Both the position numbers and the translations under genes were made by a program. Shown here one piece after another: positions 8,658 through 55,806 of a stretch of 64,000 nt of DNA (the first letter of the stretch is position 1; every line of letters begins with the position of its first letter). The notes under the pieces are model-generated. The model worked only from the letters and a program-made list of their open reading frames with translations, did not search any database and was not told the origin of the DNA. Origin of the DNA: Leucoraja ocellata (lineage: Eukaryota); assembly GCA_036785375.1 (NCBI GenBank), contig JAWMAR010000751.1, positions 186,001-250,000 of the forward strand, written 5' to 3'.

Positions 8658-9740
8658 ATACCCACTGACTCCCATGGCTATCTGGACTACACTTCTTCCC
8701 ACCCTGCTTCCTGTAAGGACTCCATCCCCTACTCCCAATTCCTCAGTCTACGCCGCATCTGCTCCACGGATGAGGCGTTCCACACCAGGACATCTGAAAT
8801 GTCCTCATTATTCAGGGAACGGGGGTTCCCCTCCTCCACCATAAATGAGGCTCGCACCAGGGTCTCTTCCATACCCCGCAACACTGCTCTCTCTCCCCAT
8901 CCCCCCACTCGCAACAAGGGCCGAGTCCCCCTAGTCCTCACCTTTCACCCCACCAGCCGTCACATACAAAAAGTAATCCTCCGTCAGTTTCGCCACCTCC
9001 AACGTGACCCCACCACTCGCCACATCTTCCTATCTCCCCCCATATCTGCCTTCCGCAAAGACCGCTCCCTCCATAACTCCCTTGTCAATTCTTCCCTTCC
9101 CTCTCGTACCACCCCCTCCCTTTACCTCCCCCCTCGACTCCGTTCAAGGACCCAAGCAATCGTTCCAGGTGCGACAGAGGTTTACCTGCATCTCTTCCAA
9201 CCTCATCTATTGCGTCCGCTGCTCTAGATGTCAGCAGATCTATATCGGTGAGACCAAGCGGAGGTTGGGCGATCGTTTCGCTGAACACCTCCGCTCGGTT
9301 CGCAATAACCAAGCTGACCTCCCGGTGGCTCAGCACTTCAACTCCCCCTCCCACTCCGTCTCCGACCTCTCTGTCCTGGGTCTCCTCCATGGCCACAGCG
9401 AGCAGCACCGGAAATTGGAGGAACAGCACCTCATATTCCGTTTGGGGAGTCTGCATCCTGGGGGCATGAACATCGAATTCTCCCAATTTTGTTAGCCCTT
9501 GCTGTCTCCTCCCCTTCCTCAGTCCCCCTGCTGTCTCCTCCCATCCCCCAGCCTTCGGGCTCCTCCTCCTTTTTCCTTTCTTGTCCCCGCCCACCCCCGC
9601 CCCCGATCAGTCTGAAGAAGGGTTTCGGCCCGAAACGTTGCCTATTTCCTTCGCTCCATAGATGCTGCTGCACCCGCTGAGTTTCTCCAGCTTTTTTGTG
9701 TACCTTCGATTCTCCAGCATCTGCAGTTCCTTCTTAAACA
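8658..9740 (+). mobile_element. 5'-truncated Penelope-like retroelement: RT thumb, GIY-YIG endonuclease and terminal repeat; antisense within PCCB intron 1
   Basis: PTDSHGYLDYTSSHP..SIPYSQFL.LRRICS (Penelope RT C-terminus) and NLIYCVRCSRCQQIYIGETKRRLGDRFAEH...VAQHFN (GIY-YIG), with a frame break near 9120. A 13-nt direct repeat, acacattaaaatt, lies at 8645-8657 and 9738-9750. Confidence 0.92.
9608..9643 (+). ncRNA. Minimal hammerhead ribozyme-like motif in the Penelope terminal repeat
   Basis: CTGAAGA-A-GGG(tttcgg)CCC-GAAA-C-GTT: CUGANGA, stem II, GAAA, palindromic ACGT stem III and an NUH triplet. Confidence 0.7.
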
Positions 9741-11184: not shown

Positions 11185-11340
11185 AAGGACACAAAGTGCT
11201 GGAATAACTCAGCAGATCAGGCGGCATCCACCGGAGAACAAGGGTAGGTGACGTTTCGGGTGGAGTCACGGTCATCAAACGTTATATTTTCGTGCTCCAC
11301 AGATGCTGCCTGACTTGCTGACTATTTCTGGCGTTATTTT
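11185..11340. mobile_element. Fold-back (head-to-head) Penelope-terminal-repeat element, diverged
   Basis: A minus-orientation arm (gacacaaagtgctgg...gacgtttcggg) followed by a plus-orientation arm (aaacgtt...gatgctgcctgacttgctga). Confidence 0.7.
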
Positions 11341-11647
11341 TGTTATTTGGAAGTCTCACATAATTGTTACAAAGATGCCTTTAAGCAGCACCACCAAATA
11401 TCACCCCAGGAAAATGTAAGCGATCGTCGCACTACCCAGCAAATGACACTGATAACATAAGTGACAAATGTCATCAATGAATGCCTCCCAGTCTGGCACC
11501 AGAAGGGGTACCTACCGAAGGGGTACCTACTAGACCAAGGACATATCGAAAATAAACAGAACGTTTAGAAAAGGAAGGTAATAATTAAACATATGCCAGA
11601 GTTGCCGTAAAGGCGTTTTGTAAATACAGACGATGTCTCAAACATAC

Positions 11648-11866
11648 CCTCTTGTGTTGGGCATCTATCCTGTGTTGACCTCCTCCTAGCATCGCCCTTT
11701 GAGACTTCCTCTCGATTCTCTCCTGCACGGTCAAGTTGCCGACTGAGTACCATTGCTTCGGCTCCTTGGCAACTCTAACGGTCGCAGAAAGAGACGTGTA
11801 TTTGCTCACCCGTAGCACACGGGTGAGCGAGCGGGAACAACACAACACTGACAGTCCAGCCGCCAT
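11648..11866 (-). CDS. PCCB: PCCB exon 1 coding part: mitochondrial targeting peptide and ..ERIERKSQRAMLGGGQHRIDAQHKR
   Basis: ATG at 11866 (atcATGG), R/S/L-rich leader, LGGG.RIDAQHKR motif, donor AGG|gtatgt; 73 codons, phase 0 into exon 2. Confidence 0.95.
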
Positions 11867-11869
11867 GAT

Positions 11870-13355
11870 CCCGAATAATGATCGAGCTTTGCGCGAACCA
11901 GGCTGCTCAGCCCGCGGTCCACCCTGGATGATCGACGGCCGGAGTAACCAATCGGCTTCGGGAAATGCTACGCCGGCGCAGCTTTCGACCAATCATGTAG
12001 GAGGGGGTGGGTTCGATCACGTCGACATGGTTGGCGGATCGAGCAGACGCAATGGAAACCAGGATCTTTGATGGAAACGGCTAAAATGAATGCGGTGTGA
12101 CTGCTGGGAGTTGTAGTTCGAAGTAAACAGGCACGATGATGTCGTCCGCCATGATGGGGCGAGTGAAGAACTACAAATCCCAGCAGAACCCGCGGGGAGC
12201 CCCAGCCCCGTTCACGAAGGACCTCCACCGACGCTATTGTCATTGGCTAAAGGACGGTGCGCAGCCACCCAACCCCCCCTATAAAAAGGAAGTCACCCGC
12301 CCGTCTGCTCAGACACGCACCACGCAAAAAGCAATGCGAACGCAGACAAGGAGAAATGCTTTCAAATCAAGGGTTTCACGAGGGCCAAAGTTGGCAAATA
12401 AAAAAAACTTCAATCGATGATATTTATTTTGCATGCGTCTTCATAAAAAGAAAGGATATTAATGTCATGGGGGGCGGGGGAAAATCAACGTGTGTTTTTT
12501 TTCGCAAGGATGAAACGGATCAGGCATTGGGAAAGGCGCTTCGTTACCTTCTTTTTTCTTCCAGTCACGTGACCGGCGTTCGAGCTCTTTCCGTTTTTTT
12601 TTCCTCTCTTTTTAAAACCGAACGTTTCCACCATTTGAAACAAAAATCTGGTCGCCCCTCGCGCTCCTCCTCCGAACCCGGGCAGCGTTTAAACAGGGGG
12701 CGGGCTGTAACCGTCAGCGGGCAGTCCGCGGTGGGAAGGAAGGCAGGAGAGCCGCCGCGGGGTGAGGGTAATGGTGGCCATGTCGGGGCGGGTTGCGAGG
12801 GACTGAGCTTTCCTTCGGTTCGCACGCTCGTTCCTTCCTTCCTTCCCCCACCCCCCCTCCCCCTCCTCTTCTCTCTCCCTCCCTCCCTCTCCTTCCTTCT
12901 CCCCATCCTTTCCCTCCCGCGGATAGAGAAGGCAGCGGCCGCCACCGCCGCTCGGAGGAGGAGGGGGCGAGAGAGAGACCGGGGGCCGAGCGGGAGGCGA
13001 GTCCTCGCGAATGGCGAGAGGCGGGCGCCGGAGGCTCGAGCCCAGCGGATCGCCAGAGGGACGGAGCGGCTCGGATGGAGGCGCCGTTCGCGGCTAGTCG
13101 GCTCCAACTCACAACCACAGCCGCCGCGGCCGCCGTGTAGTGATGGCTCTGGGAGAGGAGCCGAGCCGCCGGAGACCAGGTCGCGGCAGCGGCATCGTCC
13201 GCTGACACCCAGCTCTGTTATAAATGGACATTGGCGACGCCGCGGTAACCGGGCATCGGAGTAAAAGCGATCGGAAAGGCGCTCGGCGGCGGAGGCGGCG
13301 GCAGCAGCAACAACAACAACGCAGCGGCCTCCCCGGCCGCTGCTCGGACGCCGCC
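11870..13355. promoter_or_regulatory. CpG-island bidirectional promoter and 5' leaders shared by PCCB and MSL2
   Basis: High CpG density from ~11.7 to 13.5 kb; CCAAT boxes (~11948, ~11989, ATTGG at 12242); TATAAAAAG at 12280; GTCACGTGAC E-box at 12564-12573; GC boxes. The divergent ATGs are 1.49 kb apart. Confidence 0.85.
12101..12186. promoter_or_regulatory. Inverted pair of ACTACAnnTCCCAGCA (ZNF143/THAP11-type) motifs
   Basis: ctgctgggagttgtagttc (12101-12119) and gaactacaaatcccagcag (12168-12186) are reverse complements at 18 of 19 positions. Confidence 0.8.
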
Positions 13356-13497
13356 ATGAATCCGGTGAACGCCACCAGCCTGTACGTTTCGACATGCCGC
13401 TACATCATGCAGTGCGAGCCGCAGGATCCCGGCTCGTTTCCCGAGCTTTACAAACTGCTGCCTTACCTGCGCCAGTCCCTTTCCTGCTGTGTCTGCG
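13356..13497 (+). CDS. MSL2: MSL complex subunit 2 (E3 ubiquitin ligase), coding exon 1
   Basis: gccgccATG start; MNPVNAT.LY....LLPYLRQSLSCCVC; donor G|gtgagt, phase 1 (142 nt). Confidence 0.96.
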
Positions 13498-16400
13498 GTG
13501 AGTGCTCAACGATGCAAAAAAATATAGGCAAAAAAATCGCAACGGAAAGGGCCTTTTTATTTCTCGCTGAAGGAACAGAGAGGTGAAGACAGATCAGTAC
13601 AATTCTATTCCGAACATTGTGCTTTCTCTGTTATTTCCCCTCCTATCTCTATTGAACTCTACAAGGAAGGGGTTGTGCATTGCACCAGATGCCTGCACTG
13701 TTTGCCACTAACTACAGCAGAATTCAATTATTTAATATCTTGGCGATGCAGATGGTGCAAGTTCAGTAGTAAATGTGTGCGTGTGTTTGTTTTGACTTTG
13801 GTCGAGTGCAAGTGGCGTTGTTTCCACCTCCCCCTCAACGTTCGTACTCATATATTGCCTTTACAGTGCAGCCACCGTTTGCTGTATTATGGGAGAAAAG
13901 CTCCACTCAGCATGCTTTTTTTGTGTAAACGTGACTGAGAAATCTTAAAGAGCAACAGTTAGAGCAGAGTGGCTGTTGATGTTTGGGGTAAACATGTTTT
14001 TTCCTTCTCGAGGTAGGGAGAATTTAACTTACAGTGCTACAGAGGCCTGCACTGGTACACCAACCATGTGTTTTTATCTCTATGAAAGTGTCCTGTTTGA
14101 GCGATTTTGTTTTTGGTCATTACAGCATTGGTCTGATACTTTACAACAGTGATCTGATAAAACGACAAGTGAGTTGTATTTATTAATTGTCCGATTATGC
14201 AATGTGTTTTCTCAATTCCCAGCAAAGGCATATCGTGTCAAAGTTGGGAGTTTTTCACCCATAGTTTGCCCATATTAAATAGTTTTTTTAAATGAGAAAG
14301 CTTCAGTACGGCTGAAATAACGACGGTACTGATTTATTACTACGACTGGTCTGTCCTTTTTATAGTATCGATCAAAATGTGTAATTTTCCTACAAGCATG
14401 TAAGCACAAATATAACATCATTCGAATGTCCTTTTGTCACCGAACGCCCATTTTATTAAATGTAATTTGGGATCTCGAGAAATCAGGTTGTAGGCTTGTA
14501 CCCTGCCATTCTGGTTTGAAAACAAAAGTCACCACGTGTTTGGGGAGAGTAGTGGTTTCATCGCCGTGTATTATTGTCTCTTTGCAATTCATTCAATTCA
14601 GCTTTTTAAAACGTGGAGCTACATTTATTGAGCAAATCTGAACGCGATGAACATAATATAGTAAGATAATTTCCCTCTTTTGTATTGACCAACTATTGTT
14701 GCATATAAATAGTTTAAAATCCCAGCATATTGCGTTGGTGAGAGGAAGCACTTCATAATCAGGTTCCAGTATAAAATGATAATCGTAATTGACTGCATTT
14801 GTTATCGTTTCCTGAGCTTGTTCGCTGAAAGTTGCATTTTCGCATTAGGTGACCACCACACCCGGTCGCTGGCGTATTCTGCCCAAAAGTAAACACACAC
14901 ACACGTGCTTCTTTAGAAGCGTCGGCCTGGAAACGAAGCATGTTCAGCCAGTGAGCAACTCGATTCCAATTACTTTCGGTCACCGTTCACTTCAGATTTT
15001 TAAACTTTTAATATGTCCGAAGAGATATTAACTGCACCTGAACGACATTGTATGGAATGTTAGATACTTTTTTGAACAGATTGATAAGCTGCAATCATTG
15101 GTGTATTAACGGTAGCCTTATAGCTATGGCTGTTTTGAATTGTTTTTGCTTAGATGGTCCTGTATTATGGCTCTGATAGTTAAAGATAAAGATTTAGTCA
15201 TATTTTAATACTGTTTAAGGTCAGATGTTTAGACTATTCCGTATGTAAGATTTTAAGTCATTTCTCTGGAATATTTGCAGTGTACTTAAAAAATTGAAAT
15301 GCTTTTCACAAACATTTGTATTCATTTATGATTAATACTTCCAAGTATTTCAATTGTTTATCTAGCTTTGGAAAGAAGGCATGTCACTCCAGTCTTTGGA
15401 GAATAAGTATTATTGTAATATTGTTACAGTTAGCATTGATAAATGTCCAGGAATCCAGCCTGGAACTTGCATATCCATTGAGATACTTGGCCTTACCTCT
15501 GATCACAGGGTTTGTAACTGATATAACATTTCATACATTGCAATTTTTCACCATAATTTGCTGGTTTTGTAGCAGCATCAATTTTTGGTGGGTTTCATAT
15601 AGGTTGTGAATGTTTCAAGCCCCTGTCCAACTTTGTGACAGCTAAAGTTAGTTTGGCGGGATTTGTCATCACTTTAAATGTACAGGAGCAGGAGAATGGC
15701 TTTCCCATTTATGAGATATTTGATGAGGTAGCATGCAAGGATGACTGTGCCGCTTAATATAGGTCGAGGAAAGAGACAAAGTTGAACTCGGAGAACTAAA
15801 CCACACTTGTGATTTGAGGGATGAGATGAGCTGATTGTATCCTAAAGGGAAGAAGACCAATGTGATTTATCCTTCATAGCTAAACGTGGTGGTTCATTTT
15901 GGGGGGAAACTTTAGTTTTTCTTTAGTATTAAATTGGGTTAATAAACATCTCTGTGATGCAGTACCTTTTTTAAGGTAAGGAAGTATAAACTTGTGTTTG
16001 GGACTATCCCTTTTTTATAAACCTAGGGGAGCATTCCCACCTTTACTCATGTTGGATAAGCTGCTTTGTAAATGATGGCTAGTTGGTTGGTGCCTGATTA
16101 TGGTTTGTGCGTCTGCTTCATTGTTTGGGTGTCGAGCTCTGGGCAGAGTGCCAACAGTCAGGTCAATTTAGTATGCATTAGGGAAAAGAAGCAAGGATAA
16201 TCTGAAAAATGTGTATGCAATTAGACTAAATCTGAAATGGAAAAAGGGAACATGTATCCAGCTTTACATTCTGTGGCTATGTATTTTTTTAAAGAAACAA
16301 GTTTATTACATTTTTTAGTATTCCAATTGGATAGATCTTTCAAAGAGATAAAGAGCCAAATAGTCTCCTTTGACAAATCTTTCTGATTTGCCCAATGAGT

Positions 16401-17429
16401 TTTGTGTTCACTTTAATTTGAGTTTTGTAGATAGATTTAATGTCATGTAAATAAATGAGTTTATATTGAGGTCTTCATACCATTTGAAGATTTTGTTTAC
16501 AACTAATCAACAAACCTTAATGCACTTGATGTAATTTCATGAGCAGAGCATCAAATGTATAATCAAGCCTTTTAATTCTAATACCAGCAAATATTTACAG
16601 GCTGTTCCCCGTAATGATCACATTTTACAGGTGCCCATAAGCTTCTTTGCCATAGATTGGAAAATATACACTTGATATAAGAGCGGTACATCCACAGTAT
16701 TGTAACGGATGACATCAAAAGCTCTCTAAAGTAATAATTCATAAAAGTGGAGAGAGAGAGGAAACTCAATGGTTGCATTTGCACAGTGCAGTAGTGGAAT
16801 ATCTTCAGTTGTGAGCAAGTTAAGTTTTTGACTTTTTTGCGCATGTTTAACTTGCTTTTGTATGGGGTTTATACTGATGGAGCGAGGTATACCAGGTTTC
16901 AGAAGGTGCTCATTGTTGAGAGGTTAGTGATGTTGGGTTAAAAAATTAGTGTATGTGGGTTTTTATATATAAGAAAATAGGTTACATATAATGATTTGTT
17001 TACAAACACTTGTCCTACTCTTTAGGCTTCCCTAGAAGACTACTGCAGTGCAAAATGTTACTGTTGTAAGTCTGTTTCCTGTTTAAAATATACCATCTAT
17101 GTCGTAGCTTTTCATCGGTTGAAAATATGACATTTATGTAAATGAAACGCATTCATTTCAGAAGACAAATGACAAACGGTTCAGTTATTTTTAACAAGAA
17201 ATACATTTGTAAATTTCTTCATTTTTAATCTGTTATGTCCAGCCACAAGAATTTGTTACATTAGTTTCAGTTTGTCAGCTTCCAAATTTCTTTTTAAATT
17301 ATAAGGATAACTTTTTTACTTGTACTATGACCACGCAGTGATTAATGAATCTCGAGTGAGTTTACTCAAGCGACTGATATGTTTACAAATACACAGGACA
17401 AGATGTTAAAAGTCCAAAGTGCCAAATAT

Positions 17430-17806
17430 CAAATTACTCCCGATGGTGATGGGAGCCTTCTGCACTCACCTATGCTACTCCGATGTTGAGAAAGGCTAGG
17501 CAGACACGTCATTGGGGTTATCAAGTGGGCACCTACTTTCATCGACGTTTTGCTGATTGAACCCACGACCTCTCCAGTAGGCTCAGCGGTGCATTCTGGC
17601 GTCCCAGAACCACCACCCCTCTGCATCTGTCTAGTCGGTTGTTTGGGAGACCAAATGGGGTCTTTCCTCTTCAGCCAGAGCCACTGGCTACTGCGCTCTG
17701 CCACCCGTGATGTTTCTTTGATGGCCTGGCGTAAGACTTGTCCGCTGATCCCCAGGTCCTTCATCTATGTTGCCACACAACATAGATGTAGATGTTGCCA
17801 CACAAA
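17430..17806 (-). mobile_element. 3' fragment of a restriction-like-endonuclease non-LTR retrotransposon (HERO/R2-group-like) in the MSL2 intron
   Basis: VATSTSML..KDLGISGQVLRQAIKETSRVAERSSQWLWLKRKD.IW resembles the HERO C-terminus (AERASxWLWLRR). A short internal duplication of tgttgccacaca is present. Confidence 0.7.
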
Positions 17807-18697
17807 AATCCCATGGTCTGTTAATTTCTGTCCCTCAAAAAACATTGCATTTTGAAGATTTTTGTTTCAAATCTGATATGTGTATTCTATTGTAATGCTG
17901 CAGTCACCGTGTATTTATGTTGCACCTCAAATTTGTGCAAGTTCTTTGCAATGTTGAGGTGTGAACGATTTAGAGCAGTCCTGACCATTTTGAAAATAGC
18001 AATGATAGACACAGTACTAAACAACAAATTTGTATCTCCTTTTAAGCACTGGTGTTTTTTTTAGGATATATAAAGAAATCAAACGGTCCAGATCATGCTC
18101 ATGCTGGTAACTCAATAAAGATCCAATAAGAGCTTCATTCCAGATGCCAGTACTTGTGTACAGAATATGCTGGAGGTCAAAGGCATCTATCTGACTTTTT
18201 CATCAAGCAGAGTCCTATAACCCGCTGAGCATGGGGCCGGTTACCTTTGGTATTAGGCCCCAAAGCGACATGCCAGCCGCACTTGGTGTATCTAGTATAC
18301 CCTTATTCATTTGAATAGGGTGACTGGTCTACATTTTTTTTTTAACTTTGTGTTCCTAGTTGAACTTATATTTGAATTCTATATAGATCACTTCTGGGAA
18401 AAGCAAGAAGACTTTCTAATAGCTTGTGGTGACCAAAGGTTATTGGGATAATCTAGACATAGTCTTGGGTTCCACTGCCTGTGGCCTAGTTGTCACTCAC
18501 AAAGCAGTTCACTTTGTGGGGTGGCCTTGCCATCTATTCTGGCCATATACACAAAAGTATGCAGCAGCACAAGGTGAGTGCATTAACAAAGCTCATACTG
18601 CAGTGCAAACCTACCATTTCATTTCACTGAAGTGGTTGGGGAATATCTTTTCAAATATACAAGATCATAATTTTACTGTGAACAAAGAAATGTTAAC

Positions 18698-18812
18698 ATG
18701 GAGACACAAACTGCAGATGATGGAAGGTTGAGCAAAACACAAAGCGCTGGAGCTACTCAGTGGGTCAGGTAGCATTTGGGGAGGGAATGTGCAGGCAACA
18801 CTTCAGGTTGTA
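18698..18812 (-). mobile_element. Old Penelope-terminal-repeat-derived fragment
   Basis: aaactgcagatg...acacaaagcgctggagctactcagtgggtcaggtagcat. Confidence 0.6.
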
Positions 18813-19433
18813 GCTCTTTTATTTGCCGTAAAATGCTTTATACACCAAAGACTAATGGAAGTGTAAGCATTTCAGGTACAAAATGACTTGTTTGTGATAT
18901 CTCAAACTATAATAGATCTCAATTCATAATCATGGATGAAATATGACTGAAATATTAATGAGCATGTTGTTGGATAGGGCAAGCTTTGTAAAGGCTTGAC
19001 AGCCTGTTATGGAGGAATCCCATTTTACAATATAATTGTAGCTGCAAAATCACATTTAAGACATCTACTGAATTTTATTACAAAAACTACTGACATGGGT
19101 AACATATTCTCTAGTCTGTTCTACCAATGCCACATATTACTTACTAACAAATAATAGACTATGGTCATTGAATTTGTGTGATTTTTATTTACACTTGTCC
19201 CTAATTTGGAAATGAACATGAAGTAATTGGATCCTAATTTTTTTTTTCTCCTTTTCCTATATTGGAACTAATATATTTTTAATGACGTAGAAGTACATTA
19301 CTTCTCAAAGAATTCCTAGATCAGTAATTTATTAAAGTAAAATTGAAAGGATTTTCCGGAAAATAGATGGGAAACAATTTTTCTAACTTTTATCAACTAC
19401 TTTGCACAATAATAATAATATTTTCTTTTACAG

Positions 19434-21064
19434 GAAACCTACTGAAAGATCCAATTGCACCTACAAACTCCACTTGCCAGCATTACGTCTGCAAACTGTG
19501 TAAAGGCAAAAAGATGATGATGAAGCCCTCCTGTAGTTGGTGCAAAGATTATGAACAGTTTGAGGAAAATATACAGCTGAACATACTGGTGCGTTGCTAC
19601 AAAAAACTATGTGAATATGTAGCTGAATCCCCAATTTCACAGCACCTCACTACAGTAATGGATGGCGCGCCTGACATTTTAAACCTGCTGCAAGAGGGGC
19701 TCTTATTGGATGAAGAGAGACAAGGGGCTGCTGCTTCGGCAAGTGCTTTAAATTTATCAAATTCACCGACCCCGTCGACCTCGGAATGCACCAGTGACCT
19801 GGAAATGGCGGCTACACCACAAATCATTGAAAATATTCAAGACTGTGAGCAAGTTTCAAGTAATACTGAATTAACCTGCTCTAGTTTCAATGGGTTGCCT
19901 GGTTGCAACGGACTTTCTGTAGGCGAATTTACTGTAAATATTTTTTCTTCTGAAAATTCAGAAAGGCTCAATACATCCTGCATGGCAGAGGACTTCAAAA
20001 GTAGGGACATTTCTGACAGTTTGCAGGCAGTCAGCGAAGTAGTTTCTTGTAGTAATGTTGATGTAGTGGGTGTTGACATTTGCAGTTATGGTGAAGACAT
20101 AAAGCCTAATGGCTCTTTGTTACTTACTGGTGGACATGTATATCAAGACCTAGAAACAGTTTCAAATGATCTAGATGCCTGTAGCAATTATTCACAACCG
20201 ATTTCTGAGGCAATTACACCCAATGGACCTCTCTTAGATGCCAAACCTATCTCCTTGCCTTCTATAAACAGTATTTTTGTTTCTAGCAACGCACCCCCTC
20301 ATGGTATTCCCTGTGTAGCAGCAACACCCAAAATAGTACGGATGAATCGGAAGCGATCTCGATCGGAGAGCGACAGTGAAAAGATTCAGCCCCTACCTAT
20401 TTCCAGAATTATACATGGCCCACCGTTAGGGGCTGCTGCTCCTGTTCCTGCCAAACGCGAGACTAAGTTGTCCACAGAAACTGTCGTCACCGTGCCAAAC
20501 GGGGGCACACTAAAAGTGGGCAAACCTTTGCTTGCGACCAGTAAAAATGTTAAAAAGCACGCAGAACATGGAGCAAAGAAATCGCACTCAAAAGTAAAGC
20601 AGGGAACAACCAAATCTAAAACCAAGGAGAAGGTTCATAGCAGTACTATAATGCCTGGTAGCCCATCAAAAATAGCATACAAAAAACCCCCAGAGAAGAA
20701 GGGGTGCAAGTGTGGACGTGCAACACAAAACCCAAGTGTTCTTACTTGTCGTGGGCAACGTTGCCCTTGTTATTCAAATCGCAAGGCCTGTTTGGACTGC
20801 ATTTGTCGTGGATGCCAGAACTCGTACATGGCCAATGGTGAGAAAAAGTTGGAGGCTTTTGCCGTGCCAGAGAAGGCCTTGGAGCAGACCAGGCTTACAG
20901 TGGGCATCAGTCTAACCAGTATCAGCAATGCGGTGCGGAATGCAAGCACGAGCGCAAGTGTCATCAATGTGACAACTGGGTCGCCAATACCTACTTTCCT
21001 AGCTGCCAGTCCACATGACGACAAAAACTTGGATGAAACTATTGACTATAGATATGACTGTTAG
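19434..21064 (+). CDS. MSL2: MSL2 coding exon 2 (rest of the RING finger, acidic/Ser linker, basic region, CXC domain); spliced protein is 590 aa
   Basis: Acceptor ttttcttttacag|GA; CQHYVCKLC..KMMMKPSCSWC (RING); RKRSRSESDSEK; CKCGRATQNPSVLTCRGQRCPCYSNRKACLDCICRGCQN (CXC); ends RYDC*. Confidence 0.97.
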
Positions 21065-24427: not shown

Positions 24428-26230
24428 TAAGTAAGTTTATTGGCCAAGTATTCACATACAAGGAATTTGCCTTGGTGCTCTGCTCACAAGTACCAACATG
24501 ACACACAGTGACAGTTACGAATAACTCAGTAAACATTAATAATAATAAAACATTAATGAGAAAACACCATTGTTCAAGCATGTGAACCAACTAAATACCA
24601 GATCAAAGGATGGCTGCAGAATTTTGGCTGTTGAGTAGAGCAACTACTCGTGGATAAAAACTTTTTATGTCCGGATTGTCAAAGCTGCCACAGCCAGAGT
24701 CGCCTTCCAGAGGGAAGTGATTCAAAGAGTTTGTGGCCAGGGTGAGAGGGGTCAGAGATAATCATGCCCGCTCGCTTCCTGGCCCTTGCAGTGAACAGTT
24801 CATCAATGGGGGGAAGGTTGCAGCCTATAACCTTCTCTGATGATCGGACGATTCGCTGCAGCCTCCAGGTGTCGTGCTTGGTGGCTGAGCCAAACCAGAC
24901 CATGATGGAGAAGGTGAGAACAGACCCTACGATGGCTGTGTAGAATTGGACCATCATTGCCTGTGGCAGATTGTGCTTCCTCAGCTGCTGTAGGAAGTAT
25001 ATCCTCTGTTGTGCCTTTTTGATGGTAGCTCCCCAGTCGATGGTAGCCCCCCACTTAAGGTCCTTGGAGATGATGGTTCCCAGGAACTTAAAATACTGCA
25101 CAGATGTGACTGGTATTGCTGATGGTGAGTGGGATGAGGAGAGGGGGAGCTCTCCTAAAGTCTACAATCAATTCCACTGTGTTAAAAGCATTGAGCTCCA
25201 GGTTGTTGTGATGGCACTAGGACGCCAGCTGTGACACTTCCTGTCTGTAGGCAGATTCCTCCCCATCCTGGATCGGATCAATCAGGGTTGTGTCGTCCAC
25301 AAACTTGAGAAGCTTGACAGAGGTGTCTCTGGAGGTGCAGTCGAGTAGTGGAGAGGAGAGAGTATGCTTCTATGCTGAGTGTTTGCGGGTCCGAGATGTG
25401 CTTTCCCAGCCTCACATACTGCTTCCTGTCTGTCAGGAAGCTTGTGATCACCGACAGAGGGGTTCAGGCACAGTAAACAGAAAGTTTGGAGTGTAGTAGC
25501 TCTGACACAATGGTGTTGAATGCAGAGTTAAAATCAACAAACAGGATCCTCGCATAGGTCCCCTGGCGGTCTAGGGTGCTGTAGGATGAAGTGCAGGACC
25601 AGGTTGACTGCATCATCCACACATCTATTGGCCAATATGCAAACTGCATAGGTTCCAGCAGGGGAATTGTGATATTTTTCAGCTTGGCCAGCACAAGCCT
25701 TTCGAGTGTCTTCATGACTACAGAGGTCAGCGTGACAGCCTGTAGTCATTAAGACAAGTAAACCTTGCCTTTTTGGGTACAGGGACAATAGTGGAGACTT
25801 TGAAGCAGGCAGGGACAGTACATGTTTGCAGGGACTGGTTGAAAATGTCTGTATAGACCGGTGCCAGCTGTTTGGTGCAGAGCTTAAAGATAGAGGGAGA
25901 AACATTGTCAGGTCCTGGAGATTTCTGGCTTTTTTGTCTTGTGAAAAGCCTCTCCACCACCTCTATTTTTATTGTTGATATTGGATAAGTGATGTTGTGC
26001 AGCACTGTGGGTGTGGGTGATTGGGTGTGAAGTGGTGATTGGAGGGGGGTGGGTGGGTGTAGAAGGGATAGTCTTTGCAGACTGAGGTCAGGCTGTGAGT
26101 GGGTGTGAAGTGTTGGTTCGGTTGGGAAATGGTCGTCTTTTCGTACTGGAGTCATGCCTTAAGTGGGTATGAAGTGTTGAATGGTAAGGAGAGGGTGCAG
26201 GGTCCATTATTTGTAGACTGAGGTCTACAA
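24428..26230 (-). mobile_element. Rex1/Babar-like LINE, 5'-truncated and frameshifted RT pseudogene
   Basis: KSPGPDNVSP, IFNQSL..VPACFK.STIVPVPKK..CLNDYR, QFAY, ARILFVDFNSAFNTI, FKFLG..IS.DLKW, SHPGHKLF..LPSGRR; 3' end aataaacttactt. Confidence 0.9.
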
Positions 26231-27617: not shown

Positions 27618-28540
27618 AAATATAAACAAAGATTTGATATGTATGCAAACTAACAATTCACAACATTTGCATTTTGAATAATGCAGAAATTATAAATATG
27701 AATTGAAACATATGACTCATGGTTTTATAAACAGTGCAGTGATGTTAAGATAATATAACCCATTATTTAGACTAGCTTGTTTATTATGTTAAGCTGTGAG
27801 CCACACACTTTGGAAGGTTGTTAATGCACACATAATGAAGAGAAAACTAGAATAGTAGCAGGAAAGTGAGGTTTAATTATGTTGAAACCAGGGAAACTGA
27901 CGTTTTTCTCCTTGGAACCTGACGTGAGGAGAATGGGTGAGGAAGTGTTTCAGCAAGAATCTCTGGATCATGAAATGCACTTTGAGAACAATTTGGGTGA
28001 ATCGTTAGAATTTTATATTCTGTTGACCAAGTTATTTAAAGACATTCCTGGCAATTGAAAATCTTTGTTTGACTTGGATGTCATTTCCCACAACATCTGG
28101 AAACCTGTATGGTTATCCTCGGAAAGTGATCTAAAATCTGTTGCAACTGGCTTGCAGTTGTGACTTGCCAATGATATTACGTTTCTGGAAGTACTCTTTC
28201 TAGAATTACTTGTTTAAATGTTAACAATAAAGTTGGAATGCCATGATTGGACCTTGAGCCACACAATAAGAAGATTGTTGGCAACTTAGGCAAAGGTGGG
28301 AGATTTGGTCTGGTGTGTATAATAATTACAAGAAAATACTGCATGTGGAGTATGATTTCTGTTTAATGATTGTCATTTCTAATGTGCATTTTAGATATTT
28401 CAATATATTGCCTACTATACATGGCAGTGAATTTCATGTTTACTATTTATGATTTAAATCTTCAGTGTGCATGAGCAGAATATTTTACATCTATAGTAAA
28501 ATATTTCATAAAGTTTATTTAAGAGAATAAATGAAACTCT

Positions 28541-28811
28541 TTGTCTACCTTCGATTTTCCAGCATCTGCAGTTCCCTCTTAAACACTTTGTCTACTCCAC
28601 TGCGAAATCTCCTCAAGGTATGCATACTTTGAAGAAGTTCTCCTCCTCCCTCCGAAGAGTTTTACAACCTCCTCACTGACTGCTCCCCCCTCTGTGCCCT
28701 GCCTCCCCCACCCTATGTCAGTCTGAAGGGTTTCGGCCCGAAACGTTGCCTATTTCCTTCGCTCCATAGATGCTGCTACACCCACTGAGTTTCTCCAGCA
28801 CTTTTGTCTAC
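28541..28811 (+). mobile_element. Non-autonomous Penelope-derived monomer, circularly permuted, with 12-nt TSD
   Basis: TSD aaatgaaactct at 28529-28540 and 28812-28823; starts and ends with ttgtctac; hammerhead-like core with a 3-nt deletion at 28723-28747. Confidence 0.85.
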
Positions 28812-31800
28812 AAATGAAACTCTAACACTGGTTTAATATAAATCAATAATCCGAGTCTGCCACTTGATTCCTTAAACTTGTTGTGCTGCCATTTAAGATC
28901 ATGTCCCATCTGATTGTAACATCAGCTTTGCTCTGCATTCCCATTTACTCAAGCTAAACTTTCATTCCCTGGATAAAGAGAGATTCTTAATTAAATCTGG
29001 TGCCAACCAGACAAGATCTGCTTATGCCTAATCTTTCCTATAAAGTAGCCATTCTTCTATCTATGCCAATGTTATCTCTAACATCGTGAGCTTTTATTTT
29101 CCATAACAACATATGATGTGGCATCTTGTCAAATACCTTCAGGCAATCTTGGTATGTCCACTCGGCCGTTTTTCCACAACATAATGCAAAAGATTGGAAT
29201 TGGTCAGCAAATATTTCCCTTTCACAAAATCATGCTGACTTTGCCTGATTGCCTTGCGAAAATGTTTGTAGTATACCTCTTAACACTTTCTCTTTGACAC
29301 ATTTGGTAAACAAGTTTGAATCTGATCCTTGTCTTGTTAACTTTGCCAGAAATTGCATTAATTCATCTTGAACTTTGTCTTACATTTGCAATTGTAAACC
29401 TATTGTGCTATATTTATAGATACTGAGAGAAAACAGGCCCTGCGGATATGCTTGAAATGCCACAGTGCTTCAGCTGAGAAGAGGCGGGGATACTGTTCTG
29501 TCCTAATTGCTATCTACAGTCTTCTGGTTTGATGGTAAGATTGACTTTATCTACAGCTGAATGCAAATACTTGTGTGATTAAACTGGAAAATTTGGGGGG
29601 GAAAATGCATTCAATTCAATGAGAAACTCGTAACCTCTTTAAAATTCTTTATTTAATTTCAAAATCTCAAAAAAGTCTGCACTGTAAAGCCATGCTAGCA
29701 CAAGCAACCAGCAATATTTCACACCATTTTCAGCAACCAAAAAGCATAACACAGCTTTTATTTTGAATCATTTCCATAGTTTTTAAACCATTAACAGTTA
29801 CAACTTTTTTGAAAAAGTTGTACTGTTTGAGTTGTTTTACAGTAGCTCACATTTTCAGAGATGGCGCCATTGAGTTTGCATAGAGCAAGAATTATTGTGA
29901 AAAAGAAATGGCAACTTTTCATCAAATCAGTCATTTTGTACAGATTGTGTTGCATCTGAATAATACACATGTTTCAACCATTTAAACAAAACAAAGACTC
30001 TACTGCTATAAATAATAACATTGGAAAGTATTGCATGAAGATGCTGGAGCTTCTCATGTTTAATGTATAAATCTGTCGTTCATCAAGAATAATTGAATTT
30101 TTATTTCAATCACAAACTCTGAAGCTACTTTCCTTTGCATTTTATATATATATATAAAAAACCCTATATGGTAGTTTATGAATTTACAAAGAATCTAATG
30201 CTGAGGTTTCTATATTTGCAAACCACACTGAATGAACAAACAAATTTCACACATTTTGTAGTGAGTTTTTTTTATATTACATTACTTACAGTGATAATGA
30301 AATTCTACACGTGTGTACATTAATTGTCTAGAACAGTAAAGGCTATAAATAAGGCACATATTCAAAACAAAATGTTAACAAAAAAAGTAAATGGCAGTTG
30401 CAGAAATGTACTGTGTTGGTACATTATATCAAACTTCACAAACAGGAAGAACAAATGTAAGTGTTCAAATTAGTTTTCACCATTGCTCAGATGATGCAAT
30501 GTGTTGGAAGGGTAGAAATGGCCGACATGCGTCCAAGGACCTGTGAACCCACCATGTTGACTAATTTTCTTTGTCTGATATCTGTACTGCTTTCTTCAGA
30601 AATAGACTTCCATTGTAAGTGTGGCATTGAATGTTACAATTGAGATTTAGTCTGGTCTGGTATAAATTAGTGGGACCATTGTAGAACCAAGGGTTGTCTG
30701 GAAAATGGGTGAAAATGCTTTATCTTAAAATATTATGAATTATGATGATTCTCGTATTTGCTATGTAGCTTTCCTCTAAGTAAAAGTCCCATATGATTTG
30801 AGCATCCTGGTTGTGGTCTGATAAAAGAATGAAGCCTATGGAACTAAGTTTAAATTGTCTGCAGTTCTAACCAACATTTCTGAGAATTTTCATAAGCCCC
30901 CACAAAAAACATGTGACAAATTAACAATTTCAAGCATGCAGTCTTATTCTAGCTACTCCGAACAACCCCATGGCACTAACTGTAATCATATAATCAAAAC
31001 TTCAAGATGTAACTGATTTCTGAATTATAATCCACGCCACAATTCAAAGAATGCCATGTCAAAGTTCTACATGGTTGGTACTCAAAAGGAACATAAACCT
31101 TCCTTTGTTATTCACCTTTAGCTTTACTGGCCAAATACCACAATTGCTGCTTCTGGCTCTTGCAAACATCGGAGGTTTAACACAATGCCCAGAGCAAAGG
31201 TTTCAAAACAAACACATCACAGTGATGCAGATTTCAGAGGGTAAGGATTTAGAAGAAACCATTTTTGTAAAGGACACATGATATATCAGAAATAAAATAC
31301 TTGTTTAATTGTGTTGATGTTTATGCTATAACCAATCCCATTCAGGATCTTGAACCAAACAGACTATTAGGCCAATTGGCACACAGTATGCTCAATATGT
31401 ATGTATGTCTGTGGTCTTATTTGCATAGGCTGATAGCTGAGAATTAAAAAAAAGCAAAATTCAATTTTGTTAATTTTGAGTGCACAAAACATCTTATTTT
31501 CTTTATATTAAATCATAGAAACACATCAGCACATCCCATCTGTGATCTGCCTTTCAACCACTGATGAAAATTTAAGAAAACGATTAACATATTATTTTCT
31601 GATCATTTAACAAGTGCATGATCTTGTAATTTTTTAGGTTTTCACTGCTTGCAAGACATATCAAACAGACAAGTCTTTAAATTGGTGGCACTGGCAGAAA
31701 AGGTGAATCAAAATGGCACCCTATTAGGACTAATCTGACATTCACATTTCAGACAAGAGGTTCAAATAATTGTTTCCATAGTCTACATAAAATAAAACAA

Positions 31801-38565: not shown

Positions 38566-38584
38566 ATTATTTGAAGACTCCTAC

Positions 38585-38691
38585 CCTTCCTGTAACTGTT
38601 CATTGGCCGATTCCTCAGCAACTAAAATTTCATATTCTTCAGCTGCGTATTTATCCCAGTCGGAAGGTTCTGGACCATCACTGTCGACATC
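38585..38691 (-). CDS. PPP2R3A: PPP2R3A exon (DVDSDGPEPSDWDKYAAEEYEILVAEESANEQLQE-G)
   Basis: 107 nt, flanked by tttcag and gtagga; conserved SDWD.YAAEEYE.LVAEE; translated by hand. Confidence 0.95.
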
Positions 38692-41930: not shown

Positions 41931-42527
41931 AGGAAGTCGAGAAACTGTAGTGTACCCAACATTTTGAATGAAATCAACAACACAATGGAAAAATAATTCT
42001 GGTGACCCGGGAAAGTATTAAAACCAATAAAACAAGTACTTCCTGCAAGAGAAAAATGCCGTATCATAGAAATATGTAATGACAAATGTGTTCCAGAAGT
42101 GCATACAGAAGAGCTTACACATGTCAACAGCGAGATGAATCAATTTGTAATATGTTCAATGGCACAAAAAGTAAAAATGCCAGCGATAAAAACATAGTTA
42201 AGGAGATTTAAGTGTCTGAGAAAACCAGTTGATGGACACAACCTATAATCACTGTGTATGTGAAACACTTTTCCAAAGAGGGAAAACAGTTTACTGTGTT
42301 TGCACGTAAATATGATAGGAAGTCATGTTGGTATGTAATGTGATGGCATCATGAGCTTGCCATTACCACACAGTACTGTGGTCAGGACGCATTGCAGCAG
42401 GTACCCACCGATGTCTCCCGTAGATTATTCCAACAGACAGCACCAAACCCTGGCTCACAGACCATCTCCAAATACAATACAAACACAATGCTAAAACTTT
42501 GGTTTGAAAACAATCTTGCTATACCAG

Positions 42528-42650
42528 GATAGACACAAAGTGCTGTAGTCACTCAACAGGTCAGGCAGCATCTGGAGCCTGATCCTCTGAGTTACTCCAG
42601 CACTTTGTGTCTATCTTTGGTATAAGCCAGTCTCTGTAGTTCCTTTCTAT
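42528..42650. mobile_element. Fold-back Penelope-terminal-repeat element lacking the ribozyme core
   Basis: Inverted arms gatagacacaaagtgctg...cagcactttgtgtctatc. Confidence 0.75.
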
Positions 42651-43117
42651 TTGCTATACCAGAAACTGTAGGTTTTCAATAATTCCCTGAAACAGTAATA
42701 TAGCTTTCTATAGAGCAAGAAACTTTTATGTATGAAAAACTAAAACATTCTAACCTATCCTAGAAGTTTTTATTGACAAATTTGCCTTAAAATAACGTAC
42801 TGAAAATTCACATTATTTAGTCATATTTGCATATCTCAAATCCAAATTATTTAATGTTTAGTATAGCTTCATTATTTTTGTCTAATTTCCATTTCCCCTA
42901 CTGATGAAAGTCAATGTGTCACAAACTAGAGAGACATACATGTGATACAAGAATGCACTGTTAAGTAAGCTCAAGGTGCCCTTTATACATAAGAGAATGA
43001 TGATAATTCATAGCTACTTTCACACTAGATACTGCCTGTTTACCAAACCAGCATTCCAGGGAGTAAAAAACATTGATGTGAAATTGTGTATATAATCAGT
43101 CTATAATGTTTGATTAT

Positions 43118-43510
43118 ACCCCTCCCACTCCGTATCCGACCTCTCTGTCCTGGGTCTCCTCCATGGCCAGAGCGAGCAACACCGGAAATTGGAGGAACAG
43201 CACCTCATTGGGGAGTCTGCATCCTGGGGCATGAACATTGAATTCTCCCAATTTTGTTAGTCCTTGCTGTCTCCTCCTCTTTCTCAGCCCTCCTGCTGTC
43301 TCCTCCCATCCCCCAGCCTTCGGGCTCCTCCTCCTTTTTCCTTTCTTCTCCCTGCCCCCCCACCCCACCCCCCATCAGTCTGAAGAAGGGTTTTGGTCCG
43401 AAAAGTTGCCTATTTCCTTCGCTCCATAGATGCTGCTGCAACTGCTAAGTTTCTCCAGCTTTTTTGTGAACCTTCGATTTTCCAGTATCTGCAGTTCCTT
43501 CTTAAACAAA
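43118..43510 (+). mobile_element. Short 5'-truncated Penelope copy (GIY-YIG C-terminus plus terminal repeat) with 16-nt TSD
   Basis: Close match to 9343-9740; tataatgtttgattat at 43102-43117 and 43511-43526. Confidence 0.92.
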
Positions 43511-53306: not shown

Positions 53307-53534
53307 CTGGGGGAGACATTTAAAAATATAATTAGTCTTTGAATCTGGATCATTCTACCTGGCAAAATTAACACAACTCGTCAATACATAATGTAGATAA
53401 AGACCATGTACCAAGGCTTTATGGCTCAGGGGCATTAGCATTAGCCATAGTTGTTGACCGTCGCCCCTCAAGCTCGCTCTGCCATTGGGTTATATCCAGG
53501 CTCTTCTGCAATTCAACATAATTTTACATGTAGG

Positions 53535-53650
53535 GCCAGGCAGCATCCCTGGAGAAAAGGATCCTTCCAAAAGGTTGCTGCCTGACCCGCTGAGTTACTC
53601 CAGCTTTTTGTGTCTATCTTCGGTTTAAATCTGCAGTTCCTTCCTACACA
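53535..53650. mobile_element. Fold-back Penelope-terminal-repeat element
   Basis: caggcagcatccctggagaaaagg | ccttccaaaaggttgctgcctgacccgctgagttactccagc... Confidence 0.7.
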
Positions 53651-55617
53651 TCATTTTACATGCCTTTTTTTCATTTCCTTGGTTATCTCACCTAACAAAA
53701 TACTTTTCTCAATCTTAAGAGTTCTGATTACTCCCAAATCTGCAGATTTCCGCATGGCAAATCCCAGATTTCAATTGCCTTCAGTGATAAAATGCAGTTT
53801 CATTTCATTCCCGAATGACCCAAGTTGGCTCTGACATGTAGTTCTTGAACATTCCCAACAAAGGATAGGCTTAAAAGCACCTTAAACAGGGCTAATCTCA
53901 CATTCAAGCTGTGAAAGAGGATAATATTTCCTTTGCTGAGAAAGTGACAATGTTTCTTTACACTTCTGCAAAGTTCATTACAAGTAGTAAAATGACTTTG
54001 AGGTTTTATTGCCAAACTGGAACATACGAAATGCAAGCAAGTGTAAGAAACAGGAGCAGGCAACATGTCCTTTCATTCTATTTCCTTACTAGATTGTATC
54101 TTTATTCTTACCCATTTTCCTAAATTCCCCTGGTTTTCAAAAACATATCAATCTCAGTCTTCAACAATGACTGTGATCTCTGGAATTCTTTGAAATGCAA
54201 CATTCTCATCGTCAGAATGTCTTGACTTCAACTTAAATATTGTCTTCACAAACCCAATTATAAATGTAACATTAGTTTATAGATCGGACATTGGTTTTCC
54301 CACAGGCAAGGCTTCTGGTTGGCCTGCCTGGTGTCAGTAGGTAGAGAACTACATCAAAGTTCTCTCATGTGGAATAAAGAAAATGGCATTGCATTTCAGT
54401 AGTGCTGAAGCCTTGGATGTTAATGAAAATTGAAGTAACTCATCCACATCGTAAACCCACATGAGCTTGGCAATGTATTGTTTATGATACGGCAATTTCT
54501 TTCTTATTGCACAATTAACGAACAGGCCGTTGTACATTAGCTTTCTGGTGCTGCAGCACAAGCTTTTAAGATTACAGCCAGTATTATAAAGATTCCTTGT
54601 AGATGTTTTGAGCGCAGTACATAAAACCTGGTCGGACAGCAATTTTGGTTATATTAATAACCAGACTCTTTTGCTAGTATAACTGAGGAAGATAAAGATT
54701 ACTGGCTCTCTCCATTTACCTATCAGGCCTCTCCAATGCTGACACCAGCATGCCCACACTACATCTCAAGCTCAGCACTTCAAACTTTTGCAATGGTTAT
54801 GCAATGTTAGTGCTTGCAATATTTAGACTACATAATGCTGGTATTTTTTTACCACTGGAAATAAGTTGGTCATTGTTCTTCAGTTACAAATAGGACAAAC
54901 TTCCCTTGGGCAAATTCTCGTGACTAACTCAGTCGCTGCGTTATTTTAAATATAGTCATTTATAAACGCTGATGTTATCGGGGCACAGCTTCAGTTTGCA
55001 ATACATAACGCAAAGCTTAACACCATGCAAGGTAATTGCAGAAACATTAGGAATGAGATTCTGATCAAGGATAATCCTATTTAAATAATTTACAGTATGT
55101 TTATTTACAAATGATAAGAGATTCTTATGAACCAAAATTATAGAATTTAATTTCGCAAGGAAAAGGTGATAGGTTTGTATGTATTTAATTGTGTTCAAGG
55201 TATTAAATTATTTGCATAATCTCATTAAATGCTCGAGGAATTAATGAATTTCTAGGTTAATTGCAATTCCTAAGCTAATTTCTGATAAATCGAAGAAGCC
55301 CTATAAAAATTATTTTATTCCTCTCATGGGAGGAGAACATTGCTGGCAAGGACAGCACTAAATACCCATGCCAAATTCCCTGAAAGTGTCTAAGCAGAAG
55401 TAGACATCAGTCCATAGCAAATGGACTTGCTAGTCCATTTCCGAGGCATTCAACAACTGCATGCTCTGGGCCTGGAATTGAGCATAGGCCAAATCAACTG
55501 AGGACAGCGGATTTCCAGAGATCATTCTCTGAAAGACATCAGTCAATTAGACGGGTGTTTATTGCAATCTCATGTTTAATGCTTAACATTGTTAATACAA
55601 GTTATTTTTAAACAAAT

Positions 55618-55806
55618 ATAGACACAAAAAACTGGAGTAACTCAGCGGGACAGGCAGCATCTCTGGAGAGAAGGAATGGGTGATGTTTCGTCTCGAGAAA
55701 CGTCAACCATTCATTCTCTCCAGAGATGCTGCCTGTCCCGCTGAGTTACTCCAGCTTTTTGTGTCTATCATCAGTTTAAACCAGCATCTGCAGTTCCTTC
55801 CTACAC
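55618..55806. mobile_element. Near-perfect fold-back Penelope-terminal-repeat element with 14-nt TSD
   Basis: Arms 55618-55689 and 55697-55768 around gtctcga; atttttaaacaaat at 55604-55617 and 55807-55820. Confidence 0.9.

Follow-up and report, generated by a model that had tools for sequence, protein, structure and literature searches.

The closest described systems are the EN+ Penelope-like elements (PLEs; PMC8557442). The insert reported here shares with them a minimal type I hammerhead core in which A9 is followed by an extra base and which has G10.1-C11.1 and a palindromic CG, as well as the partial-tandem layout, the 35-nt optional tail and a target-site duplication (TSD), and its relatives carry the reverse transcriptase (RT), the CX4CXXC linker and the GIY-YIG domain. 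In contrast to these elements, the insert lacks about 2.7 kb of the ORF and its core is broken. Since the linker motif was present in 4/4 relatives checked, the family is probably of the Neptune type.

For the Poseidon PLE of Anolis carolinensis (Frangieh et al. 2024, PMC11167929), the excerpted text gives two preferred 3' ends bounding the tail, targets rich in A/T, and at most slight target-template homology, all of which recur here, the last at the insert's priming end. According to the same excerpt, copying begins internally on RNA spanning the junction between pseudo-LTR (pLTR) and ORF, with uncut RNA as the main substrate. However, the start sites in Anolis lie 111-118 nt inside the ORF, whereas priming sites 1 and 2 of the skate family precede the ATG, and the excerpt reports no crossing to downstream RNA. 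The Penelope copies of Adineta vaga (Arkhipova et al. 2013, PMC3846280) are likewise dead, TSD-flanked and marked by internal microhomology-type deletions, but the excerpted text ascribes these deletions to DNA repair and describes no form consisting of one unit plus a few bases.

Non-LTR retrozymes (Cervera and de la Pena 2020, PMC7229834; Li, Clavereau and Pollet 2026, bioRxiv 10.64898/2026.07.22.740005) have units of ~150-450 nt, or 51-972 in the 2026 survey. They resemble the insert in size (263 nt), PLE derivation, lack of an intact ORF, type I hammerhead ancestry and a TSD of >4 bp (12 nt here). Unlike them, the insert is not tandem, unamplified, broken in its core and not self-paired, and no expression was seen in a poly(A) run. 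For the skate PLE family itself, literature searches yielded only the 2026 preprint, whose supplements may list chondrichthyan retrozyme families relevant to it.

Structure of the insert

The window is the whole 64,000-nt stretch of Leucoraja ocellata DNA that was analysed (contig JAWMAR010000751.1, positions 186,001 to 250,000), and all coordinates refer to it. One comparison used the skate gene model P0256 (XP_055520926.1), a predicted protein that was compared at the protein level only. The features are as follows.

28529..28540, no strand: left TSD, 12 nt, 9/12 A/T
28541..28548, + strand: 8-nt terminal overlap (TTGTCTAC), the last bases ahead of priming site 1, found again at the 3' end
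28549..28586, + strand: PLE tail bounded by priming sites 1 and 2, with a length of 35 nt in the 9.6-kb copy; tail concept from the excerpted text of PMC11167929
28587..28619, + strand: PLE 5' leader, opening with the element's second TTTGTCTAC; high-copy in three genomes, whose contigs join it to the tail, as does P0256
28620..28689, + strand: first ~24 codons of the PLE RT/GIY-YIG ORF, ATG at 28620, 2-nt deletion near 28657; assigned from N-terminus comparison, P0256 and contig depth
28686..28697, + strand: seam from ORF start to C-rich 3' UTR, its exact point blurred by low complexity
28693..28722, + strand: final ~30 nt of the 3' UTR, rich in C; the 5' strand of hammerhead helix I forms its end
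28723..28749, + strand: minimal type I hammerhead with a 3-nt core deletion, likely inactive; predicted cut after 28747
28750..28811, + strand: remaining pLTR, which runs to the insert's 3' end at priming site 1
28812..28823, no strand: right TSD
8659..9737, + strand: reference relative outside the insert, a 5'-truncated PLE with the 3' half of the ORF, 3' UTR, intact hammerhead, tail and 13-nt TSD

The sequence-only reading had proposed a PLE-derived retro-insertion of unit length with a short overlap, and its geometry is borne out. The insert (28541-28811) measures 271 nt, that is 263 + 8, with TTGTCTAC at both ends (9 nt if the last T of the TSD is included), and the clean 12-nt TSD is exact at 28529-28540 and 28812-28823. 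A chance duplication was rejected (p ~9e-5 over 21x21 offsets). The order is indeed permuted: the pLTR tail leads in the insert and trails in the 9.6-kb and 43.3-kb copies. TTGTCTAC, a repeat that flanks the element's tail on either side, stands at three positions (28541, 28588 and 28804). Positions 28541-28585 are identical to two ORF-bearing copies at 42/45 and 41/45 letters, and the pLTR piece 28541-28586, standing ahead of leader and ATG, reproduces the partial-tandem layout of PLEs.

The interior told a different story from the one claimed for it. The ~130 nt said to be absent from other copies have no further match in the window, but they are ordinary element sequence: 28587-~28689 are leader and ORF start, high-copy in three other genomes, and ~28693-28722 are 3' UTR. 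The alternative that had been named against the circle, namely that 28588-28715 is simply contiguous element sequence, is what we found for 28587-~28689. Because these ~130 nt are ordinary leader, ORF start and 3' UTR, the insert reads as one PLE unit plus 8 nt from which ~2.7 kb is missing at the seam (~2.65-2.75 kb, estimated from relatives). The unit was also said to hold no ORF; it has no intact one, but a broken remnant of the first ~24 PLE codons, its only coding content, starts at ATG 28620. The family possesses an ORF with RT and C-terminal GIY-YIG, of which the insert retains the start only.

Three lines of evidence bear on this ORF start. For copy counts, contigs of three other, related organisms were used in place of the source genome; the resulting values are summed contig depths (82% likeness, 86-100% of each run read), which are rough and represent no true copy number. 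In total, 4 of 21 listed runs entered the comparison. On this scale, 28600-28637 reached 0.36-1.2 million, against 20-53 for the single-copy flank. In P0256, leader and ORF start are contiguous with the pLTR (35/41 identical). The reading from ATG 28620 (X at the break) resembles the N-termini of the 5 closest among 43 anchorable full-length PLE relatives (114 in the set), and a match as high was reached by 0/2000 shuffles and 0/1387 window ATGs; a simpler best-hit test was weak, with 96/2000 shuffles and 24/1387 ATGs reaching the score. The claimed donor-like site aag/gtatg overlaps this start codon, and the RNA depth of 106/35 ahead of it is followed by 115/39 behind it, with no drop, so the splice-donor reading was rejected among the joints listed. 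These were the stronger joints, with 221 weaker ones ranked below them, and rare use of the site may occur.

Priming sites, seam abundance and age

Among 18 PLE copies examined in the window, 10 bear TSDs, of which 4 end at priming site 1 and 6 at site 2, 35 nt apart. The insert's 3' end (28811) is thus a usual PLE priming site, and many loose contig ends lie behind 28585 and 28811 in the three genomes. Of the window copies that bear a core, 10/13 start 0-4 nt before it. The insert lies between MSL2 and a gene that has an exon at 38.6 kb; the latter gave no PDB match.

The only new seam lies at ~28689, 58 nt from the hammerhead cut, and not at the GUH site, where the junction had been placed. 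Its bins (lower of two) had depths of 119, 448 and 240 in the three genomes, against single-copy depths of ~52, 21 and 38, which corresponds roughly to at most ~2, 21 and 6 copy-equivalents, compared with hundreds of thousands for the pLTR; moreover, ordinary ORF starts and 3' UTRs account for part of the depth in the seam bins. Among the contigs listed, one spans the seam (X1 record 7, depth 34.8, 1 mismatch, 2 gap letters), and none does among those listed for X2 and X7. The depth of the PLE family collapses across 28640-28675, with family-type depths of 127, 1146 and 742 at 28675.

The insertion locus is common to related species. The insertion is old: its flanks differ between species by 5-8 of 172 letters. 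A recent or private insertion was rejected: 6/6 flank contigs from the three organisms reach 23-29 nt into the insert before stopping, each below the 31-letter bridging rule, and no empty-site joint was present among the joints listed for these organisms. In a poly(A) run (X21, ~6% read), depth was 0 in 14/14 flank bins, no flank or seam reads were found, and 5/5 reads at 28716-28717 bore ordinary 3' UTR letters. Because poly(A) selection removes circles, this run says nothing about them.

Origin of the insert

The insert is very probably a gutted, unamplified copy of a Penelope-like retrotransposon. Direct observation covers the parts of the insert and how they are arranged, the TSD, the absence of the ORF interior, the seam at near single-copy depth and the locus shared between species. 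Taken as sequence, it appears to be a single, old, dead copy whose ORF start has been joined to its 3' UTR, mostly an ordinary PLE copy and not a retrozyme. It is one dead insertion of a described kind among several hundred thousand PLE end-pieces.

As to how it arose, we give an even chance to one target-primed copying event in which RT crossed within the element's RNA. The element's endonuclease would nick an AT-rich target, and copying would start at priming site 1 (28811), inside RNA spanning the pLTR-ORF junction. RT would then read back through the hammerhead, still uncut, and reach the C-rich 3' UTR at the usual family stop or slightly upstream of it. There it would leave off and resume near ORF codon 24, in a C-rich stretch that lies downstream on the same RNA. 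Finally, it would copy the ORF start, leader and tail and halt 8 nt beyond its own start, on RNA already copied. A template jump is a possible, tentatively held means of crossing, while a single earlier ligation of two RNA ends is unlikely. The 2-nt and 3-nt deletions are likely to have arisen later, but before the split from organism A. This crossing model is supported by the position of both breakpoints in special zones, one where most core-bearing copies start and the other where family depth collapses, and it would yield a near-zero overlap without coincidence. The rarity of the seam speaks for it too, as does P0256, a second skate copy in which ORF codon ~18 is joined to the ORF end, a different seam in similar zones. 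According to the excerpted text of PMC8857657, R2 jumps in vitro, jumping may not be needed physiologically, and LINE-1 chimeras are attributed to pre-ligated RNA; in the PLE literature consulted, no demonstration of a jump or ligation was found. The case for crossing rests on one locus. The finished DNA is identical under the rival explanations.

We consider it doubtful that a 263-nt RNA circle left this insert behind, a circle closed not by the hammerhead but by ligation of a PLE fragment across the pLTR-ORF junction, with its seam near 28689, and then copied once around from the normal internal priming site. If so, such events would recur in skates, P0256 with its different seam being a second case. 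Such a circle could also represent the birth step of retrozymes, because ribozyme, ORF start and both priming sites are all retained in its product. More generally, gutted TSD-flanked copies record a priming site and a stopping point and offer a test case for more-than-unit insertion of PLEs and for retrozyme birth; if their overlaps and seams were counted across whole genomes, linear, jumping and circular templates could be told apart.

The main rival to RT crossing is a later DNA deletion: a full-length PLE, running from a short upstream pLTR piece through leader, ORF and 3' UTR to priming site 1, would have been inserted from a linear partial-tandem transcript, and ~2.7 kb would have been lost between C-rich stretches. 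Partial tandems with a 5'-truncated upstream pLTR are normal in PLEs (PMC8557442, PMC8969392), the 8-nt overlap falls within the 64 nt available to a linear RNA cleaved at the upstream hammerhead, and the insertion is old. Microhomology deletions occur in PLEs (excerpted text of PMC3846280) and in window copies; the 9.6-kb copy lacks the linker stretch and the insert has its two small deletions, which reflect DNA loss in the family. Nevertheless, this route needs a rare full-length copy, as the depths at 28675 indicate, requires both deletion ends to fall in special zones, and demands a 5' truncation within 8 nt of the priming site, an estimated chance of roughly 1 in 6 to 1 in 13. We regard it as rather unlikely.

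The reading first proposed, in which a non-autonomous 263-nt unit, present as a dimer or array, was excised by two hammerheads and closed into a circle, or else read off the array, and then inserted once around, is improbable. What the unit retains is exactly the cis-acting set of hammerhead, ORF start and both priming sites; its size lies within the retrozyme range (PMC7229834), pLTR-derived retrozymes exist in the one chondrichthyan surveyed (bioRxiv 10.64898/2026.07.22.740005), and the short overlap is consistent with it. The "once around" geometry survives, but a jump or a one-off ligation of a linear fragment fits it as well as a ribozyme circle does. Against amplification as a circle or array stand the rarity of the seam and the window itself, which holds one unit plus 8 nt and no tandem array. 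A joint that "goes back 263" was rejected as circle evidence: it is nothing but the usual pLTR sequence, which 5, 6 and 6 DNA contigs contain and which was read in either direction (381/325). Nor does the unit pair with itself in excess, folding no better than shuffles as a linear molecule (z -0.43; 60/200 fold as well) or as a circle (z -0.16; 76/200 as good). Helix I has 2 pairs only, and no stem shows a two-sided change among 10 copies.

It is highly improbable that both hammerheads cleaved a full-length PLE RNA of ~3 kb, that the resulting circle was copied for one round and 8 nt more, and that the ORF interior was lost afterwards: the circular-intermediate model for PLEs (Cervera and de la Pena 2014, PMC4209133) accounts for the short overlap, and 5 window copies have intact minimal hammerheads, but the same rare later deletion is required, minimal PLE hammerheads cut poorly in vitro (PMC4209133), and according to the excerpted text of PMC11167929, the Anolis PLE did not require cutting for its insertion and no RNA-seq reads ended at the cut site.

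Hammerhead motifs

The 3-nt core deletion and the broken ribozyme reported earlier are real; the insert's core fails the minimal type I descriptor, which 5 window copies satisfy with predicted cleavage, and its hammerhead is likely inactive. No Rfam hammerhead match was obtained at E<=1. The predicted monomer folds lacked the hammerhead shape, which a dimer-type motif would not be expected to form as a monomer. Pattern scans gave 0 and 0 matches in viral sequences, 0 in one metagenome scan, a single chance match (L001) in genome contigs, and one unrelated minimal hammerhead (L002) in a second metagenome scan. Across the window hammerheads, 86% of cells were paired, without a covariation signal.

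Structure of the insert and its assignment

The 271-nt insert at 28541-28811 is a real feature that had been partly misread: it is a gutted, unamplified and ancient copy of a Penelope-like element (PLE). In agreement with the sequence-only reading, it is bounded by exact 12-nt target-site duplications (TSDs; chance ~9e-5), the tail of the pseudo-LTR (pLTR) stands first, TTGTCTAC occurs at both termini to give one unit plus overlap (263 + 8 nt), and 3 nt are missing from the hammerhead core. A third TTGTCTAC, at 28588, had been overlooked, and the repeat flanks the PLE tail on each side. Compared with two ORF-bearing copies in the window, the part from the hammerhead to the end is identical at 89/94 and 82/94 positions, and the tail at 42/45 and 41/45. 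The short direct repeat bounding the element's tail falls within 28534-28548, 28581-28595 and 28797-28811. The sequence at the left target junction agrees with that around the second repeat in 14 of 15 letters, a likeness that may have helped the 5' joining of the insert.

By its pLTR, tail, hammerhead motif, ORF start and TSD, the insert belongs to the PLEs and behaves as an ordinary insertion. It is likely of the Neptune type, judged by the linker motif of its relatives (criterion from PMC8557442). PLE copies with internal deletions (PMC3846280) and the partial-tandem form (PMC8969392) are known. We found no description of this skate PLE family, or of a gutted PLE of one unit plus a few bases, in the literature searched, which lay outside most subscription journals and Repbase.

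Identity of the sequence after the tail

Contigs of three other, related organisms (X1, X2 and X7), together with a poly(A) RNA run (X21), were aligned to 28391-28960 at 82% likeness, with the flank depth of the contigs (20-53) as the single-copy yardstick; these were four of 21 listed runs. Contig depth reached 5-9 million on the tail, fell to 0.36-1.2 million across 28600-28637 and stood at 21-35 million in 28752-28770, and many contigs of all three ran unbroken from the tail to 28652-28659. Therefore the ~130 nt after the tail, which had been described as unseen in other copies, is common element sequence. At position 28624, C is found in most other copies, and some have two extra letters near 28657.

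The Leucoraja erinacea gene model XP_055520926.1 carries pLTR, tail, leader and beyond in a single frame, 35/41 identical to 28542-28664. Translated from ATG 28620, with an X standing for the 2-nt break, the reading was scored against the amino termini of full-length PLE proteins, which had been ordered by their similarity to the C-terminal ORF pieces of the window; 43 of 114 proteins had the anchor motif and enough upstream sequence, and the other 71 were excluded. Against the top 5 and top 10 proteins its score was equalled by 0/2000 shuffles and 0/1387 window ATGs, and against all 43 by 4/2000 and 1/1387; a cruder best-hit test was weak (96/2000 and 24/1387). From these sequence comparisons we conclude that 28587-28619 represents the PLE 5' leader and 28620-~28689 the first ~24 codons of the PLE ORF. 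The ~30 nt just upstream of the core resemble ordinary PLE 3' UTR, and ~2.65-2.75 kb is absent from the insert, as reckoned from relatives of ~904-913 residues. The donor-like site proposed earlier coincides with the ORF start codon, and X21 RNA depth is steady across it; the splice-donor reading was rejected.

Depth collapses over 28640-28675 (in X1, from 1.0 million at 28624 to 90,000 at 28657 and 161 at 28675), with ~10,000-40,000 copy-equivalents comprising tail, leader and the first 7-12 codons, where the alignment ends. Possible reasons are a third priming site within the start of the ORF, the presence of other subfamilies, and a mini-element joined at a different seam.

Rarity of the seam and age of the insertion

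At the seam (~28689; 28686-28697), the ORF start is joined to the C-rich 3' UTR. Depth in the two seam-crossing bins was 119 and 337 in X1, 844 and 448 in X2, and 412 and 240 in X7; because any copy that runs across the seam adds to both of them, the ceiling is ~2, 21 and 6 copy-equivalents, respectively. Much of this depth has family ORF letters (28675, 28684) or ordinary 3' UTR letters (28717). Among the contigs listed, one reads across the seam (X1 record 7, depth 34.8, one mismatch); it is two letters shorter than the window, and therefore both small deletions are common to X1 and the window. Summed contig depth is not copy number, and the contigs listed are a subset of all records, but seam and family still differ by three to five orders of magnitude.

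Flank contigs stop 23-29 nt within the insert on both sides (6/6), a reach below the aligner's 31-letter bridging rule in all six. No empty-site joint was among the joints listed for X1, X2 and X7, and their right flanks show 5-8 differences in ~172 letters. Given flank contigs that enter the insert, the absence of an empty-site joint from those listed, and the differences between flanks, the insertion is old and shared.

PLE copies in the window

PLE end-pieces are spread all over the window.

PLE pieces in the window
8273, 10662, 27530, 38555, 51220, 58250, 58550, 59569, 60992, 1689 (start positions): PLE end-pieces, most starting 0-4 nt before the core
55612-55810, 42522-42655, 53530-53650, 58250-58556, 11185-11337: inverted pairs of pLTR pieces, three within a single TSD

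The inverted pairs agree with the usual inverted PLE form and cause spurious Rfam hairpin matches in the window. TSDs were present in 10 of the 18 copies examined; four end at site 1, as the insert does, and six at site 2, 35 nt beyond. These two end sites agree with the Anolis study, in which the PLE tail is tied to two internal positions where reverse transcription starts (PMC11167929). Of the core-bearing copies, 10/13 have their first base 0-4 nt upstream of the core, where the C-rich tract ends.

The minimal-hammerhead descriptor fits five window copies and not the insert. Ten aligned hammerhead copies have 86% of cells paired, with a helix I of two pairs, and show no two-sided (covarying) change in the stems; the putative ribozyme is assigned by the motif described in PMC4209133, not by covariation. 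The 3' UTR at 9496-9611 and 43264-43379 has a long pyrimidine tract and CAG one base upstream of the hammerhead core, resembling a splice acceptor. Helix I marks the end of an intron in Drosophila virilis Penelope (PMC4209133).

Origin of the insert

PLE enzymes are not known to break down the RNA-cDNA hybrid. The possible routes look alike in finished DNA, and the mechanism is what we infer from it. Copying would begin at site 1 on an RNA that extends across the pLTR-ORF junction, the template type used in PMC11167929; reverse transcription would arrive at the C-rich tract, resume near codon 24 of the same RNA, and halt just past its own starting point. One such crossing event would account for all features of the insert at once, and we hold it evenly balanced whether this produced it. 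The predicted hammerhead cut, after 28747, lies 64 nt upstream of site 1; therefore a linear RNA cut upstream permits an overlap of up to 64 nt, and 8 nt needs no circle.

Crossing by a template jump is a tentative possibility. Jumping by other retroelement enzymes has been seen in vitro and its role in vivo doubted (PMC8857657), and for LINE-1 a switch to a region further downstream on the element's own RNA has been proposed (bioRxiv 10.1101/2024.08.27.596794). Crossing by one-off RNA ligation is improbable; LINE-1 chimeras have been attributed to pre-ligated RNA (PMC8857657). A second such join, of codon ~18 to the ORF end, appears at protein level in XP_055520926.1 (E 0.11-0.15, not significant alone). 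In this TRIM-like model, residues ~311-374 form a PLE piece that continues into the 3' UTR, by its sequence either a second gutted PLE copy or a gene-modelling artefact.

A later DNA deletion within a full-length PLE copy is unlikely: it requires a rare full-length copy, both breakpoints must fall in special zones, and the truncation must end no more than 8 nt from the priming site. A circle of 263 nt made by the ribozyme, the retrozyme-like origin first proposed from the unit-plus-overlap structure, is improbable, as it requires a dimeric parent and predicts a family, and none was seen in the X1, X2 and X7 contigs. Unlike retrozymes as described in PMC7229834 and bioRxiv 10.64898/2026.07.22.740005, the insert failed every test of tandem units, intact cores, amplification and self-pairing, and the 263-nt unit folded no better than shuffles. 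A full-length PLE circle is very improbable indeed.

Head-to-tail joints of short units (28585 to 28725; 28811 to 28725) occur in X1, X2 and X7 contigs; such ~90-130-nt dimers of end-pieces are better retrozyme candidates than the insert.

A joint that goes back 263 nt was found in 381 and 325 X21 reads and also in 5, 6 and 6 DNA contigs; being normal pLTR sequence, it was rejected as a sign of a circle. At 28716-28717, X21 reads had ordinary 3' UTR letters (5/5). The organism of this run has an orthologue of the insert, judged by X7, and in the ~6% of the run that was read RNA depth was zero in 14/14 flank bins; circles are lost in poly(A) selection, so the result says no more than that transcription of the locus was not detected in that sample.

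Genomic surroundings

The insert sits between MSL2 and an exon at 38584-38691, which we take to be PPP2R3A-like; a PDB search with this exon gave no match.

Other features of the window
11585-11992, minus strand: PCCB exon
13224-21064, plus strand: MSL2
24679-26158, minus strand: LINE-like reverse transcriptase fragments of another element, with Pfam ALKBH8_N on one piece
38584-38691, minus strand: exon, presumably PPP2R3A-like
3557, 29413, 35081, 38875, 44129, 51386, 55895: second dispersed repeat family, SINE-like (D7, D9, D13, D15, D17)

The window comes from a cartilaginous fish, probably a skate in view of the Leucoraja match. The PLE ORF piece at 8.6-9.5 kb has its best protein matches in shark and ray. 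At ~9120-9135, the 9.6-kb PLE copy is missing ~17 codons of the RT-endonuclease linker and carries a frameshift.
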